DNA of 64,000 bases from Candidatus Hydrogenedentota bacterium. GTDB taxonomy: Bacteria; Hydrogenedentota; Hydrogenedentia; Hydrogenedentales; SLHB01. The translations under genes and the position numbers were made by a program. The stretch covers positions 26,309 to 90,308 of the forward strand of contig CAVUWV010000030.1 of assembly GCA_963745075.1 (NCBI GenBank). The letters are read 5' to 3'. Each line of letters begins with the position of its first letter. Positions within the stretch are counted from its first letter, which is position 1. Of the stretch, positions 3,826 through 34,203 are shown one piece after another. The notes beneath the pieces are model-generated. The model searched no databases. It was not told where the DNA came from and saw only the letters and a program-made list of their open reading frames with translations.

Positions 3826-4155
3826 ACTTTTTACTCCCAGTGATGTCATACGTTTCGGCATTCGAACTAACCACCTCGTCAGCGTTGGAAGCAATTTGAA
3901 CCCTGAGGACTGAATATTGCAAGGATTCATCCTTTTAAGTCATGCATACTGCGTGCGGTAAATGGCAGTTTCCCTAGATAATGGGAGCCAACTTCCATTT
4001 GCAGGAATTGGGGATAAGGTTGTTATTCACTGAAATTGCGAAAAGTATAGAATACTATAAACTAAACAATTTTGTTGATGTCATCGGGATTTTCGGGTAT
4101 ACTGTCTTGTGATTCGATAAAATTGCCGTGCTTTTGCGGAATTTTCAGACAGCGG

Positions 4156-4243
4156 GGCTCTTGGCCGTACTTTTTCCCGTGTCATAGGGGGATTCTGTAC
4201 TCGACGACCGGAGCCGCAACGTGAGAAGGGGAGGATTGACAAC
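4156..4243 (+). promoter_or_regulatory. Candidate structured 5' leader (copy 1) of MCP gene
   Basis: Outer stem 4156-4168/4204-4215, inner hairpin 4171-4192; homologous to 7049-7137 with compensatory changes. Confidence 0.5.
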
Positions 4244-6412
4244 ATGAGTCGTAATCGCTCACTGGGGTTCAAGATTATTGCAGGTTACGTTTTAATCATG
4301 CTTTTCGTAGGTATAACGGGGATAGCGGGCTACGTGGGGATTAGGCAATTAACTACGCAGATGCACCACGTGGGAGATGAGGAGGTCCCGCTTCTGGAAG
4401 CGGCAAACGGGTTGAAGTATCAAGTCCAGGCGAGCGTGGGTCGGATGGAGGAATTGCGGTCTGCGACGGCCGTGATCGCGATCGCACAGACCGACAAGGT
4501 GGACGCGATCGAGTCGGAGTACCAGAAGGCGGCAGACGCGTTTGAGACCTACCTTTCGGCGGCACAGGAGGGCGGTCAGATCGAGGGTGGCCTTACGGTC
4601 GTCAAGACGGATGACACCGAGTTACTTGATCTATTGGCGCGCGGAGATAAACTGCACAATGACGAGTTCGGTCCTGCGGCTGAAGAGATTGTGGAGCACG
4701 CCCGGGAACTTGTAGCGGCCAAGAAGGCGGCTGATGCTGGCATGGAGGAGCAAGACCAGCAGTTTGATCTCTTTGTAAAGGCGTTGGATGCCATGGAGCA
4801 GAGGATTCTCGGCATCTTTGTGAAGGACAAAGATGCCGCTACTACGGTGGAAGAACTCCGGAAGGTCACCGACCAAGATACTCCGTTAATCGACGCGGTG
4901 ATGGACATGCGGCTGGCAGTTGCGATGGGCCGAGTACGGATCGAGGAACTCGCACAGTCGACTGATCGGGAAAGTACCAATGAGGGGAAACAGCGATTCG
5001 ATGAGGAAATGGCACGCTTCGACCAAGTGAGTAACGCTCTACGCAGGGGTGGCGAAATTGGCGAGGTTACTGTCGAGCCGATTAAGGACAATGAACTCCT
5101 GGGGCTTCTTGATGCGTGTGATGCAGCGCACGACGGCTATTTAGAAAAGGCGAACGCCCTGATGGAGGGCCAACTGGGGCTGATCGATACCGCCGACGCC
5201 GCTAAGGCCGCGGCCGTACGATTGGCCAAGGCCGGGGATGATATCCAGAATTTGTTCAAGGAATCGGCGCAGATGGCGCGGGACGAAGTGGAAAGTGCAC
5301 AGGTAGCTGGTGAATCTGCGGCCGCTCGCGCAACCACCACGATGATTATTATCGTGCTCGTTTCGGTCGTGTTGGGCATCTTGATTGGCGTATTGGTGAC
5401 TCGATCGATTACGAAGCCGATCAACGCCATTATCGAAGGACTCCGCGGTGGAGCGTCCCAGGTAACTGCGGCGTCGCAGCAGGTGGCGGAATCGAGTCAG
5501 TCGATGGCGGAAGGCGCCAGCGAGCAAGCGTCGTCGCTGGAAGAGACCTCGGCATCGTTGGAAGAGATGGCGTCCATGACCCGGCAAAATGCCGACAATG
5601 CGCGCCAGGCGAACACGATGACTGCGGAAGCCAGTGAAGCGGCGGGTTCCGGCGAAAAGGCTATGGAACGGATGTCCGACGCGATTAACAAGATCAAGAC
5701 ATCGTCGGACAAGACGGCCAAGATCATCAAGACCATCGACGAGATCGCCTTCCAAACGAATCTCCTGGCGTTGAACGCAGCGGTTGAAGCGGCCCGTGCG
5801 GGCGAGGCCGGAAAAGGGTTTGCGGTGGTGGCCGAGGAAGTACGGAATCTCGCACAACGAAGTGCTGAGGCCGCGCGCGACACATCGGCGCTCATCGAGG
5901 AATCGCAACAGAACGCGGATGGCGGCGTAGAAGTCAGCGCCGAAGTGGCCTCGATTTTGAGTTCCATCGGCGCCGGCGTACAGAAGGTGAACCAGCTCGT
6001 CAGCGAAGTTGCCGCGGGAAGTTCCGAGCAATCGCAGGGCATCGAACAGATCAATCTCGCGGTCGCACAGATGGATCAGGTGACGCAATCCAACGCCGCC
6101 AATTCCGAAGAGGCGGCCGCCGCTAGCGAGGAGTTGTCGGCGCAGGCGCGGGAGTTGAACGACATGGTGGCGGTATTGACCGCCCTGGTATCCGGCGGAA
6201 ACGCCAGCCAGGTGGACAGCGTTTCACCGCCGCCTCGACGTGGGGCCCGCAAAGCGGCGCAACCGCCCGTCGAGCGGCGTAAGGTGGCCGTACACCATCC
6301 GGCCTTAACGGCTCCGGCCCACCGCGACGGTTCGAATGGTAAGAAGCCCGAAAAGGTAACGTCGCCGGAAGAGATTATTCCGTTGGACGACGCGGATTTG
6401 GCAGACTTCTAA
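4244..6412 (+). CDS. Methyl-accepting chemotaxis protein (paralog 1)
   Basis: N-terminal TM, large periplasmic region, second TM, signalling hairpin [38 protein letters not shown]-terminal ...[11 protein letters not shown]. Confidence 0.96.
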
Positions 6413-7048
6413 GCGCACCGCGATTATGCAACGACCCCAGAGAATCTGCTCGCATGCACGGTAGCCGGAACGCAGCACCGTGCATGTGAGCAGCGTCTCG
6501 GTGATTCTCGGGCCCGGAAATCTCACACACACCAAACGTTGGATCGGTAACCCCAACCCGCTCTAGGTCTTCACATGTAGGTGCGTGCTTTTTGGGTTGA
6601 CAGAGTGCGTGTGAGAATTCGCTCAACCACGCCCACGGTGTGGCCGTATTTCTCGAAAGCAATTCTCACCGCACCCAAGGTGCCGGTCTGCAAGACAACG
6701 TCGTTCCGGTGGTGAGAAATTCGCCTAGGCAGGTAGATTAGGGGCTGTCTACCTTCGATCCTACTAAGAACTTCTACCAAAAACCAAGTCGTCAGATTGT
6801 GGTGCAGCCATCCTGGCTGCTTTTGGCTGATGGAGAAGGCAGGCAAGAATGCCCGCACCACAATGGCTCGGACAGGTATGTTTTTTGTTAAAAGTTTTAA
6901 GTCAGGAGAAGGTTCTATGTTGCAAAATAAGCGAAAAACCATTAATAGTATTAAACGAAAAATAGGCTTGAATTAGCTGGAATTCTCATATATATTAGGA
7001 GCAGAATTCGATAAAATGCTGCAAGTATGCGGGTTTTACGGTTCAGGG

Positions 7049-7137
7049 GGCTTTTGGCCGTGTTCTCTTCCTGCGTCGATAGGGGGTCCTATTGTCGACG
7101 ACCAAGGCCGTAACGTGAGATAAGGAGAGAAGTTATC
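7049..7137 (+). promoter_or_regulatory. Candidate structured 5' leader (copy 2) of MCP gene
   Basis: Outer stem 7049-7061/7098-7109; tract TTCTCTTCCT (7063-7072) is complementary both to AGGGGG (7081-7086) and to the SD region AGGAGAGAA (7123-7131). Confidence 0.5.
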
Positions 7138-9309
7138 ATGTTTCACAATCGATCGCTGGGGTTTAAGATAGTCAGTGGATACATCTTGATAATCTTATTC
7201 GTTGGTATTACAGGAGTTACGGGGTACTTGGGGATCCGGCAATTGGCGGCTCAGTTGCACCGTGTGGGGGATGAGGAGGCCCCCCTTCTGGAGGCGGCGG
7301 ACGGATTGAAGTTCCAGATTCAGGCGAGCGTACGGCGGATGGAAGAGTTGCGATCGGCGTCAGCGGTCATCGCGATAGCGCAACCGGAGAAAATAGACGA
7401 AATCGAGTCGGAATATCAGAATGCGGCGGATGCCTTCGAGTCCGATCTGGCGGCGGCACGGGAGGGCGGTCAAACCGCGGACGGTATAACGGTGATCAAG
7501 ACGGATGACACGGAATTGCTCGGTCTGTTAGCGCAGGGCGACAAGTTGCACAACGACGAGTTTGGCCCTGCGGCGGAGCAGATTATCGAACATTCCAAGG
7601 AACTTGTCGCGGCCAAGCAAGAGTCGGACGCCGGGATGGAGAAGCAGGACGAGCAATTCGCGGTCATGATGAAGTCCCTGGACGACATGGAGGGGAAGAT
7701 CCTGGATGGGTTTGTGCGGGACAAGAACGCCGCGACCACGTTGGAAGAACTCCGGACCGTGACGGATCGGGATACTCCGCTCATTGATGCCGTGATGGAC
7801 ATGCGGCTTGCGGTTGCCATGAGCCGGATTCGCCTGGAAGAACTTGCACAAACGACGGACCTGAAAGCCGTGGACGAAGGACAGCAAGGCTTTGAAGAAC
7901 AGAAGAACAACTTTGACGCGGTGACCGAAGTCCTCCGGGAAGGCGGCCAGCGTGGCGAGGTAACGGTCGAACCGGTTCGCGACAGCGAGTTGCTGGGGCT
8001 TCTCGACGCATGCGACACCGCCCACGATGTGTATATGGGTCAAGCGGATGCGATGATCGCGGATCAGCGGTCGTTGATTGGAACGGCCAGCGCCGCTCGG
8101 GAAGCGGCCCAACGCCTGGCCACGGCCGGGGACGACATCCAGAAGCTTTTCGGGCAGTCGGCTGAGATGTCGCGCGGTGAAATGGACAATGCGCGGGAGG
8201 CGGGTGAATCGGCAGCGGCCCGGGCCACGACGATCATGACGATCATAATCCTTCTTTCCGCGGTAATCGGGTTAGCGGTCGGTGTGTTGTTAACGTACTC
8301 GATCACCAAGCCTGTCAATCGGATCATCGACGGCCTCAGCTTTGGGGCGGACCAGGTGAATGCGGCTTCACAGCAGGTTGCGGCGGCAAGCCAGTCCATG
8401 GCGGAAGGCGCCAGCGAGCAGGCGTCTTCGCTGGAAGAAACGTCCGCGTCGTTGGAGGAGATGGCATCCATGACGCGGCAGAATGCGGATAACGCACGCC
8501 AAGCAAACACGATGACGGAGAACGCCAGTCAGGCGGCGTCCAAGGGTGGTCAGGCGATGGGTCGGATGTCCGAAGCCATTTCCAAGATTAAGGAGTCGTC
8601 GGATCAAACCGCGAAGATCATCAAGACGATCGATGAGATCGCCTTCCAGACCAACCTTCTGGCCCTGAACGCGGCGGTCGAGGCGGCGCGGGCCGGTGAA
8701 GCGGGCAAGGGTTTTGCGGTAGTGGCGGAAGAAGTCCGCAGTCTGGCGCAGCGCAGCGCGCAGGCGGCAAAGGATACGTCGGAACTGATCGAGGGTTCGC
8801 AGCGCAACGCCGACAACGGGGTCGAGGTGAGCCAGGAGGTCGCGTCCATATTGGGGGCCATTTCGGAATCGGTTCAAAAGGTCAACCAGTTGGTAAGCGA
8901 AGTCGCCGCGGGCAGCAACGAACAGGCGCAGGGCATCGATCAGATCAATGTGGCGATGTCGCAAATGGACAAGGTGACGCAGTCCAGCGCGGCCAACTCC
9001 GAGGAAGCTGCGGCAGCGAGCGAAGAATTGTCTGGGCAAGCCAGCGAGTTGACGGACATGGTGCGGGATCTTACGCAGATTGTGTCCGGCGGCAACGGGA
9101 CGAACGGACGGGCGGTAGCGACCAACGGCAAGCGCGCGTCGCACGCGGTAAAGACGCATGCCGCCGAGCAGGGGCGCCGTGTGACCGATCATGCGCTCGC
9201 ACTGGCGGCGCCGGAGCGGCACGGCCAATCCCGGAAACGGGATGCGGCCAAGGTGAAAACGCCGGAGGAAGTCATTCCACTGGACGATACGGACTTGGCG
9301 GACTTCTAA
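7138..9309 (+). CDS. Methyl-accepting chemotaxis protein (paralog 2)
   Basis: Same architecture as, and collinear with, 4244-6412; ends [11 protein letters not shown]. Confidence 0.96.
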
Positions 9310-9425
9310 TATGTCCATTACCTGTGTATTCTACTAACGGGGTTTTCCGCCGCCGGATGCGGATCCGGCGGCGGGAATCGACCGCGATAACGAGTGGGAA
9401 GTGTGAATTACGCGGAGGGGAGACC

Positions 9426-11099
9426 ATGCGGAGTATCACAGGGATTGTTTTGTTCGGCATCATTGCGGCGGGTTTTTCGGGGGTGGCGGTTGCGGATCTG
9501 CAGAACGTGACCGTCGGGGGCAAGCTGGAGATCTATGGGGCGTGGTATTCGGAATTCTTCGAGCCCAATGACGGCCAGATTCGGATACCGGATTTCTTTC
9601 TGCCCGGCCGTCCGATCGGTCCGAATGGGACGGCGTCGGTCATTCGTTCCGGGGGCAGCGGCAACGAGCTAAGCTTTTTCGAGCAGCGGACGCGACTATC
9701 CGTGGACGCGGATTTCACGAACAACGTGCGCGGGTTTATCGAGTTCGATTCGATCGATACCTGGGGTGAAGATTTTCGGAGCGACTATTTGACCGGGGCC
9801 GACGGCCGCGCCTTTACCGGCGACGATCTCGAGTTGTATCAGGCGTTCATCGACGTGGACGGGATGTTTGGCCGTCCGTTGCGTTTGCGCATTGGCCGGC
9901 AGGAATTGGAGTTTGGTTCGGGCTGGCTCGTCGGCGCCGATCCGGGGCCGGACCCGTTTGTGGGGCTATCGTTCGACGCGATCCGTCTGGATTACACGCT
10001 TGACGAAATCCAGGTTACGGGGTGGTGGGCGAAAGTTGCTGAGCGGGGTATTCGGGAGCAGGATGGGGACACGGACTTCATGGGGGTGTATCTGACCTTC
10101 AGCGAATCCGGCGATGCGCCTACGCAAAGTGGCTTGCGGTTGGAGGAAACCATCTTCCCCATCCACATGCTGTATCACACCATGCGGCACGGTCCGATGC
10201 GCGGGCGATTGGCGCATCCGACTGAAGAAGTGACGTTCGACTTGTACTGGATGTATCTCCGCGATGGGGCTTCGCAGAATGATACGAACTTCATCGCGCC
10301 CATCGAGTGGTTGGAGGATGTGTTCCGGCTGGACGACTATGACGTGACCAACCTGCACACGGTGGGCGCGCGTGGCGCCGGAAATGTGAACCGGTTCGAC
10401 TGGGAGTTGGAAGCCGCGTACCAATGGGGTGATGCGGACTCGGTGGGCGCGCTGTTCCTTCCGAACGGGCAAATCTATGGCGACGATGGCGCGTCGTGGA
10501 ATGCCTGGGGCGGTCATACGGAGATAGGCTATACCGTTGACGGGGAATTGCAGATTCGGCCGTTCCTGGGCGCGGCGTACTACGGCGGCGAAGATAATCG
10601 GGACCTGTCGTTCCGGGAATGGATCAACCCTTTCTACCGGTCGGACGCGAGCGTGTCATTCAACCGGCTGTATTCGTCGTGGCGGGAAGACTCGTTTATC
10701 GACGCGTCGGCCATGACAAACTTCTGGAAAGCTTACGCAGGGTTCACGATGACGCCCACGCCGGCCATCGAACTTGGCGGGTCGGCGGTATACCTGGAGA
10801 CGCTGGAGCCTTTCGACCGGCCGGCAACGTTCAGCGTGGGCGATTGGCAGGTGCCGTTGGCGCCCGCGCTGGCCTTCTGGACCGACCAGGGCTCTAATGA
10901 GCTCGGCTGGCAGACCAACTTGTGGCTGGTCTACAACTATACCGAGGACCTTTCCTTTGAAGTGGGCTGGAGTCATTACTTTGTCGGTGAAGGCATCGAC
11001 GATGGTGCATTCATTGACGAGAATGGTTTGACCTTCATTGGCGGACAAGACAAGAACGACGCGGATTATGTGTATTTTCTGACGACGCTGGAGTTCTAG
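9426..11099 (+). CDS. Alginate-export-family outer-membrane beta-barrel protein
   Basis: Signal peptide MRSITGIVLFGIIAAGFSGVAVA after a GGAGGGG RBS; LYQAFIDV...LRIGRQELEFGSGWLVG...SFDAIR pattern; C-terminal Phe (YVYFLTTLEF). Confidence 0.8.
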   Translation: MRSITGIVLFGIIAAGFSGVAVADLQNVTVGGKLEIYGAWYSEFFEPNDGQIRIPDFFLPGRPIGPNGTASVIRSGGSGNELSFFEQRTRLSVDADFTNNVRGFIEFDSIDTWGEDFRSDYLTGADGRAFTGDDLELYQAFIDVDGMFGRPLRLRIGRQELEFGSGWLVGADPGPDPFVGLSFDAIRLDYTLDEIQVTGWWAKVAERGIREQDGDTDFMGVYLTFSESGDAPTQSGLRLEETIFPIHMLYHTMRHGPMRGRLAHPTEEVTFDLYWMYLRDGASQNDTNFIAPIEWLEDVFRLDDYDVTNLHTVGARGAGNVNRFDWELEAAYQWGDADSVGALFLPNGQIYGDDGASWNAWGGHTEIGYTVDGELQIRPFLGAAYYGGEDNRDLSFREWINPFYRSDASVSFNRLYSSWREDSFIDASAMTNFWKAYAGFTMTPTPAIELGGSAVYLETLEPFDRPATFSVGDWQVPLAPALAFWTDQGSNELGWQTNLWLVYNYTEDLSFEVGWSHYFVGEGIDDGAFIDENGLTFIGGQDKNDADYVYFLTTLEF

Positions 11100-33792: not shown

Positions 33793-33960
33793 GATCGATT
33801 CGGTCCTTCTAACGTGGTCGTATCCCGGGAAAGTCCGCCGTGCCACCCGGCCCCGGCGCCGGCGAAGAAAGGGTTAATGCAAAGCGAGAATTGTACTTGC
33901 GAACGGGTGCGGGAGTCAAAGAATGGGCGGATGAATGGGTGGACGGAAAAGTGGGAAAGA

Positions 33961-33987
33961 CCACAGCCGGGGGCGGCTGTGCCACAC
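33961..33987 (-). repeat. REP copy 1
   Basis: CCACAGCCGGGGGCGGCTGTGCCACAC, the reverse complement of GTGTGG-CACAGCCG-CCCC-CGGCTGTG-G. Confidence 0.92.
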
Positions 33988-34088
33988 GTCTACCTCGTAA
34001 GACCATGTTCTTGTCCACCCGTTGCACGCTCAGTCTATATTCAGAGACTTCGACGGTTAGTTGTGAAAACCGAGTGTTCACCAAGCGA

Positions 34089-34114
34089 GTGTGGCACAGC
34101 CGCCCCCGGCTGTG
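34089..34114 (+). repeat. REP copy 2
   Basis: GTGTGGCACAGCCGCCCCCGGCTGTG. Confidence 0.92.
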
Positions 34115-34203
34115 ATTTTTCCGCACTTCGTGAACATGCAGTCCCGGAGTAGCTCGCAGAACCCTCCTTAATCCCATGTGAGAAGTCACGTCAGAATCCC
34201 GAC

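Follow-up and report, generated by a model that had tools for sequence, protein, structure and literature searches.

Introduction

Translational control of flagellin leaders by CsrA and its partner FliW is established in Bacillus (B. subtilis hag) and in Campylobacter (flaA). To our knowledge, few chemoreceptor genes anywhere carry structured leaders, and the post-transcriptional regulation of Planctomycetota has hardly been explored. Among the leaders that have been described, the c-di-GMP-I riboswitch Bc1 is frequent upstream of genes for methyl-accepting chemotaxis proteins (MCPs) in the Bacillus cereus group (PMC11218506).

Here, we describe the leaders of two tandem MCP genes in a window of 64,000 nucleotides from a Candidatus Hydrogenedentota bacterium. 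Like Bc1, they are structured leaders in front of chemoreceptor genes, but in contrast to Bc1 they match neither the c-di-GMP-I nor the c-di-GMP-II model, have no terminator-type platform and are not phylogenetically widespread. With the fourU and ROSE thermometers and other translational leader switches that sequester the Shine-Dalgarno (SD) region they share a leader hairpin whose U/C-rich tract is complementary to the SD, and the MFE fold of copy 1 pairs UUUUUCCC with GGGGAGGA. Unlike in these systems, the tract is located inside a long hairpin with the SD outside of it, Rfam contains no match, the SD of copy 2 is predicted to be largely free and no temperature response is predicted. The likeness to the CsrA-FliW flagellin leaders consists of the motility regulon, a purine-rich loop, a GGA-containing SD and adjacent fliW and csrA frames, whereas the missing second GGA in copy 2 and the conserved stem arms and pyrimidine tract set the MCP leaders apart. 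Finally, the hairpin is reminiscent of REP/REPIN elements in being an imperfect, extragenic palindrome that retains its bulge and mismatch, occurs in either orientation and varies in its centre. In contrast to such elements, there are three copies and not tens to hundreds, the hairpin is unrelated to the RAYT-flanking REP of the window, and the surrounding non-palindromic MCP leader is conserved as well. Based on the analysis below, the conserved leader of about 130 nt is probably a regulatory RNA that is private to this genome.

Genomic setting and conservation of the leaders

The source genome (6.8 Mb in 36 contigs, 59% G+C) encodes DUF1559/N-methyl proteins, which are characteristic of Planctomycetota. 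MCP1 (4244..6412, plus strand, 722 aa; Pfam MCPsignal 1.2e-45) and its paralogue MCP2 (7138..9309, plus strand, 723 aa; MCPsignal about 1e-45) are arranged in tandem and share 70% amino acid identity. The spacer of 725 nt between them contains an inverted repeat with 23-nt arms that are 87% complementary (6440-6499, 28 nt past the MCP1 stop codon), beyond it a terminator-like hairpin GCAGCCATCCTGGCTGC followed by TTTTGG (6804-6820), and a minus-strand ORF of 123 aa (6571-6942) that has no Pfam match. Downstream of MCP2 lies a gene for an Alginate_exp-family porin (9324..11099, plus strand). A porin gene of the same family is also found directly upstream of a distant metagenomic MCP homologue (L016:1390-2922; L017:598-2130), and this adjacency may reflect a conserved sensor-porin pairing.

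The initial annotation had described the roughly 90 nt before each MCP start as homologous, which is borne out by local alignment of the upstream regions: positions 4112-4233 align with 7006-7129, nothing is alignable further upstream, and the two leaders are 83% identical over the 139 columns between the presumed 5' end and the ATG. A consensus scan yielded a promoter-like site in front of each gene, TTGATG-17-TATACT for MCP1 (4075..4103, plus strand) and TTGAAT-17-TATATT for MCP2 (6968..6996, plus strand), and both the -35 and the -10 sigma-70-like hexamers align between the copies. Transcription of MCP1 would presumably start at about 4109-4112, and the homology of the leaders appears to begin at the expected transcription start, just past the aligned -10 boxes. 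Readings of the conserved boxes as sigma-54 or sigma-28 promoters were rejected on direct reading, as either the spacing or the -35/-12 elements are inconsistent with them. The first bases of the alignment form the conserved box ATTCGATAAAAT, the putative 5' end of the mRNA (4112..4123 in copy 1 and 7006..7017 in copy 2, both plus strand). This 12-mer occurs five times in the genome, and TTCGATAAAAT, from the 5'-end box of both leaders, is present at two more AT-rich, intergenic-looking sites on the minus strand of C36, near 62892 and 90240.

In 5' to 3' order, each leader consists of the AUUCGAUAAAAU end, a small hairpin (HP1), a variable linker, a hairpin of about 62 nt, the single-stranded AACGUGAGA tail and the SD. 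Conservation is distributed as a mosaic over these parts, with 14/17 identical positions in the AUUCGAUAAAAU region, 14/16 and 10/14 in the stem arms and 9/9 in the AACGUGAGA tail (4218..4226 and 7112..7120, plus strand), which leads from the stem to the SD. The linker (5/14, 36%) and the segment between SD and ATG (10/20, 50%) are the least conserved parts. At four-fold-degenerate sites, MCP1 and MCP2 are only 40% identical (42% in the first 100 codons), so that neutral sequence of the same age should be unalignable. We therefore conclude that the leaders are under purifying selection, and the coexistence of invariant blocks with a diverged linker indicates that this selection acts on particular blocks and does not reflect a conversion tract.

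The same numbers bear on the reading that the similarity has no function and is a remnant of the tandem duplication or of gene conversion limited to the leader. Conversion between tandem repeats is common, and the two MCP genes are indeed tandem paralogues. However, the synonymous sites directly beside the leader are saturated, on which ground gene conversion was rejected as the source of the likeness, the mosaic of several completely identical blocks and diverged segments points to constraint, and a third copy of the hairpin has been retained elsewhere in the genome. A by-product of duplication, named in the initial annotation as what would be left if its proposal were refuted, finds no support in the gap between 40% and 83% identity, and we consider a functionless remnant hardly credible.

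Open reading frames also span the leaders (4124-4225 on the plus strand, 33 codons from a TTG; 7016-7123 on the plus strand, 35 codons from an ATG). Their ends lie beside the MCP SD region or coincide with its start, and no SD precedes either of them. A leader peptide was rejected, since 1-nt indels shift the conserved blocks between frames and only 6/16 of the first residues agree.

Secondary structure of the leaders

The hairpin of about 62 nt is closed by an outer stem in which GGCUCU(U)GGCCGU (4156..4168) pairs with ACGACCGGAGCC (4204..4215) in copy 1, and GGCUUU(U)GGCCGU (7049..7061) with ACGACCAAGGCC (7098..7109) in copy 2, all on the plus strand. This stem of 12 pairs, 11 standard ones and a C.A mismatch, with a bulged U is the same in both MCP copies, and it was recovered in independent single-sequence folds as well as by RNAalifold with two and with three sequences. 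It corresponds to the stem drawn in the initial annotation: three neighbouring pairs change from U-A to U-G, from C-G to U-A and from U-G to U-A, all of them still pairing, and both copies have the bulged U as well as the C.A mismatch. The accompanying statement that the two leaders fold alike is correct for the outer stem and incorrect for the inner part, where the MFE folds differ between the copies. Next to the 5' arm, the basal stem encloses a pyrimidine tract, CUUUUUCCC in copy 1 (4170..4178) and UUCUCUUCCU in copy 2 (7063..7072), which is followed by an inner G-run GGGGG (4187..4191, inside the conserved AUAGGGGG, and 7082..7086; all plus strand). Upstream of the linker, the MFE folds of the full leaders contain HP1, built from AAAAUU-G-CCGU and GCGG-AAUUUU in copy 1 (4119..4145, plus strand) and from UAAAAU-G-CUGCA and UGCGG-GUUUUA in copy 2 (7012..7038, plus strand). 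Its inner five pairs are part of the RNAalifold consensus, and 3/3 changes within them are compatible with pairing.

Several observations support the stem as an RNA structure. If the stem is taken from copy 1 alone, all of its four to five substitutions are compatible with pairing, with p between 0.003 and 0.06 depending on the assumed transition bias. Compared with 1000 column shuffles, the consensus folding energy reaches a z of -3.7 for the core (2/1000 shuffles as good), -3.4 for the leader without SD and -2.7 for the full leader. On the antisense strand the corresponding values drop to -1.8 for the core and -1.1 for the leader; the folding signal is therefore specific for the sense strand, as expected where G.U pairs matter. 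The stability of the single sequences relative to dinucleotide shuffles is not significant (z -1.0 to -1.4). Moreover, the outer stem drops out of the copy 1 MFE in a fold of about 100 nt, and it is absent from the MFEs of both copies when the full leader is folded together with 30 nt of coding sequence. The three known sequences, two of which are paralogues, are too few for covariation statistics of the R-scape type. We also noted a ratio of transitions to transversions of 15:0 in paired columns vs 12:18 in unpaired columns. As independent evidence for the stem this excess was discarded: it is circular, being largely a consequence of the way RNAalifold picks pairs, and shuffled alignments give similar counts of compatible changes. 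An intrinsic terminator or attenuator was likewise rejected, as no U-run follows the outer stem.

Possible pairing of the pyrimidine tract with the Shine-Dalgarno region

Each pyrimidine tract, a candidate anti-SD, can form eight contiguous pairs with the SD of its own gene (GGGGAGGA at 4228..4235 for MCP1 and AAGGAGAG at 7122..7129 for MCP2, plus strand), as is evident from direct reading. Since pairing of the tract with the G-run and pairing with the SD are mutually exclusive or pseudoknotted, a switch is possible, and both pairings proposed in the initial annotation do appear in the predicted folds. The further claim that tracts and SDs had changed in concert did not hold. Tract 1 is predicted to pair with SD1 at -11.2 and tract 2 with SD2 at -10.7 kcal/mol, but tract 2 pairs with SD1 at least as well (-11.8 kcal/mol; tract 1 with SD2, -7.8 kcal/mol). 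Among 1500 SD-like regions of the genome, 15% pair equally well or better with tract 1 and 53% with tract 2. As pairing with the own SD is unexceptional and cross-pairing as good, the proposed anti-SD switch amounts to generic complementarity of pyrimidines and purines. In constrained folds, the SD-paired state of copy 1 is favoured by 4.1 and the stem state of copy 2 by 5.5 kcal/mol, so that the thermodynamic model places the two MCP copies in opposite states, with the tract paired to the SD in the MFE of copy 1. Between 10 and 45 C, the SD is computed to become only slightly less paired, its mean unpaired probability in copy 1 going from 0.02 to 0.12 and that in copy 2 from 0.55 to 0.67. None of these computed results singles out a switch between tract and SD. 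What remains of the suggested translational on/off switch is a sense-strand hairpin that is maintained in both leaders; covariation of the anti-SD is not seen, and a riboswitch is unlikely.

In this context, an RNA-binding protein has to be considered. The obvious candidate is the motility-linked CsrA, the partner of FliW, which would bind the GGA of the apical loop together with that of the SD and repress translation of the MCP genes. The genome carries adjacent, overlapping fliW and csrA frames, a partner-switch pair of the flagellar type, on one strand (C24:173018-173173 = L054:1435-2155, minus strand; Pfam 2e-35 and 6.9e-25; csrA on C24 matches PF02599 at 88.8 bits), next to a DegT/DnrJ aminotransferase gene. 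In copy 1 both candidate sites are present, AUAGGGGGAUU in the hairpin top (GGGGGAU loop) and AGGGGAGGA at the SD (GGAGGA), and the single GGA site of copy 2 lies in AAGGAGAG at its SD. Besides, the invariant bulge, the mismatch and an unpaired UCG hint at a recognition that involves more than base pairing. However, the hairpin top of copy 2 reads GGGGGU and contains no GGA, the third copy has no G-run at all, and the best-conserved parts, namely the stem arms, the pyrimidine tract and AACGUGAGA, are not motifs of the CsrA type. Control by CsrA is therefore an unlikely explanation of the leaders.

Distribution and family searches

In agreement with the initial annotation, which recognised no c-di-GMP-I or c-di-GMP-II motif, cmscan of the whole window against Rfam at gathering thresholds gave no match. 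In the region 3900-7300, the c-di-GMP-I/II models were unmatched even at E<=10, and the only matches came from two irrelevant eukaryotic families, snoR80 over the 5' part of the leader and mir-4859 between MCP1 and MCP2, each with a score far short of its gathering threshold. For covariance searches, we used a model built from the two MCP leaders (R1) and a core model built from three sequences (R2) and applied them to the family (54 genomes), to 40 close relatives with the speed filters off, and to 135 genomes of the phylum. In each of these sets, both models recovered nothing beyond the source genome's own copies, which number three among the 135 genomes. The two best foreign matches (G005 and G032) have an E of about 0.005 per genome, which is chance level for 135 genomes, and were rejected, because one lies within an ORF of 807 aa and the other lacks both the tract and a gene context. 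The exact pattern GGCCGT-N-TCGACGACC-N-AACGTGAG was found at 13 loci in 185,579 species genomes and at 21 in JGI metagenomes, all of which were rejected by the model.

The sensor domain of the two proteins has a similarly isolated position, with its nearest relatives only about 30% identical in 61 related genomes and in a set of 5.8 billion proteins. The genes of these relatives follow a CheW or an Alginate_exp porin gene after a short spacer, or have unrelated leaders, and model R1 had no match in their upstream regions. Homologous MCP leaders, which were to be collected from related genomes according to the initial annotation, were thus not found there, the upstream regions of the relatives being unrelated. 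Within the collections searched, the element is private to one genome, and it belongs to no described RNA family.

This distribution also bears on a reading of the leader as an RNA thermometer or as a riboswitch for a small molecule, with the pairing of tract and SD as its expression platform. The conserved unpaired nucleotides, the irregular basal stem and the SD-complementary tract would be in line with such a device; the pairing U5CCC:GGGGAGGA of copy 1 resembles a fourU element, and MCP genes are known riboswitch targets (PMC11218506). In contrast, no Rfam family was assigned at E<=10 apart from the two irrelevant ones, conservation of the apical part does not extend to the third copy, and the predicted accessibility of the SD is nearly flat between 10 and 45 C. 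Confinement to one genome, as judged from the 135 genomes of the phylum and two pattern scans, weighs in the same direction, because a riboswitch is unlikely a priori for an element known as three copies in a single genome. Taken together, a riboswitch or thermometer is highly improbable.

A third copy of the hairpin outside the chemoreceptor genes

The genome scan revealed a third copy of the hairpin (C21:25618-25682 = L055:3119-3184, plus strand), in which TTTTGGCCGT, TTCTCTTCC and TCGACGACCAA are the same as in copy 2 without a mismatch; UUCUCUUCC from the tract of copy 2 is likewise identical there. As the chance expectation for these common blocks is between 9e-5 and 7e-10, chance similarity is excluded. 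The C21 copy keeps the stem, the bulged U, the C.A mismatch and the pyrimidine tract, and adds a change from C-G to A-U, a double transversion. In the three-sequence stem, 97% of cells pair and two pairs are changed on both sides, and shifting the stem partners by one to three columns reduces pairing to 20-46%. The inner arm halves show no change among the three copies, whereas the central 20 nt or so of the C21 copy, including the G-run, are replaced, and tail and SD are absent. Homology is limited to the hairpin of about 62 nt (L055:3124-3183 = window 7052-7114), which identifies the hairpin as the conserved unit and thereby strengthens the stem and weakens the idea that the element is dedicated to MCP genes. 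The copy is located in a spacer of 224 nt between two minus-strand genes for an FGE-sulfatase-like protein and a DegP/HtrA-like protease, on the strand opposite to both, and its hairpin can be folded on either strand. Owing to this orientation and to the missing SD and G-run, it fits poorly to a dedicated translational switch of MCP genes. The initial annotation did not anticipate such a copy, which broadens the range of readings. The spacer at C21 is without a DNA homologue in the genus.

Such a setting is what would be expected of a REP/MITE-like or copy-pasted palindrome that landed upstream of the ancestral MCP gene before its duplication and once more at C21, and that was co-opted or simply tolerated in the MCP leaders. 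The C21 homology is bounded exactly by the stem arms, the site is an unrelated intergenic region in which the hairpin runs opposite to both neighbours, the similarity is not due to chance, and the arms are conserved while the centre is replaced, as in repeat hairpins. On the other hand, three copies in 6.8 Mb are few for a repeat, and the hairpin does not resemble the REP at 33950-34115, beside the RAYT of the window, nor does it have target-site duplications or a REP-type terminal tetranucleotide. Given the saturated synonymous sites, any neutral insert should also have decayed, and the non-palindromic leader blocks ATTCGATAAAAT and AACGTGAGA are conserved in addition to the palindrome. A mobile or copied repeat therefore seems rather unlikely as an explanation.

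Alternatively, the arms could be inverted half-sites of a DNA operator, TTGGCCGT and ACGACCAA, about four helical turns apart; a transcription factor would occupy them past the MCP promoters and, at C21, ahead of the DegP-like gene. An operator would work irrespective of its orientation, in line with the C21 copy, and it could account for the inner arm halves that are invariant in all three copies. However, the distal arm positions differ between copies and are nevertheless complementary within each of them, including G.U pairs; this combination is expected of a hairpin and not of half-sites that are read by one protein. The strand specificity of the folding signal argues against an operator as well, and the arm spacing of 33-36 nt among the three copies is tolerable for a hairpin but not for a phased operator in double-stranded DNA. 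We thus regard operator function as very unlikely.

Proposed mode of action

The reading we favour, to which we give about an even chance of being right, is that the two leaders represent a lineage-specific structured RNA module that has been kept by purifying selection since the duplication and probably acts on translation. Judged from position and conservation, the hairpin module most likely acts on translation or on the fate of the mRNA. It would set the rate at which translation of the MCP mRNAs is initiated and possibly also how stable they are, with the pyrimidine tract pairing with the G-run within the hairpin or, alternatively, with the SD. The balance between both pairings may be tipped by a factor in trans that recognises the irregular stem together with the tract. 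The conservation and the stem are shown, and the promoter, the transcription of the element, the SD pairing and any signal are putative. Under this lineage-specific module, the locus would show how a newly duplicated sensory pair retains shared translational control. If the module is not functional, it is still an example of small palindromic modules that spread and persist. The hairpin is in either case a compact target, with natural compensatory variants in two MCP mRNAs and a third copy free of this context, even though its general importance is limited by the confinement to one uncultured genome.

A more speculative and quite improbable extension is that the 62-nt hairpin with its displayed tract is an orphan recognition module for a factor in trans, be it a protein, a small RNA or a ligand, which works in cis in the MCP leaders and as a free-standing small RNA or decoy at C21. 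The C21 copy could, from its sequence context, be a small RNA gene. If the orphan module were true, translation of chemoreceptors would be tied to a signal via an RNA class that is new to Planctomycetota.

Some minor features accompany the three copies. Upstream of the C21 copy and on its own strand, a sigma-54-like TTGGCAC-N5-TTGAG (L055:3056-3073) has a -12 element that reads GA and not GC; about 13 sigma-54-like 10-base matches are expected by chance genome-wide. In the MCP leaders, GUGAGA of the invariant tail (4221-4226 and 7115-7120) is complementary to the early coding sequence of its own gene, at non-homologous positions: CUCAC in codons 6-7 of MCP1 (4260-4264) and UUUCAC in codons 2-3 of MCP2 (7141-7146), a complementarity that is probably due to chance. 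Just upstream of the C21 copy lies a perfect 6-bp hairpin, CGCGAUCUUCAUCGCG (L055:3103-3118).
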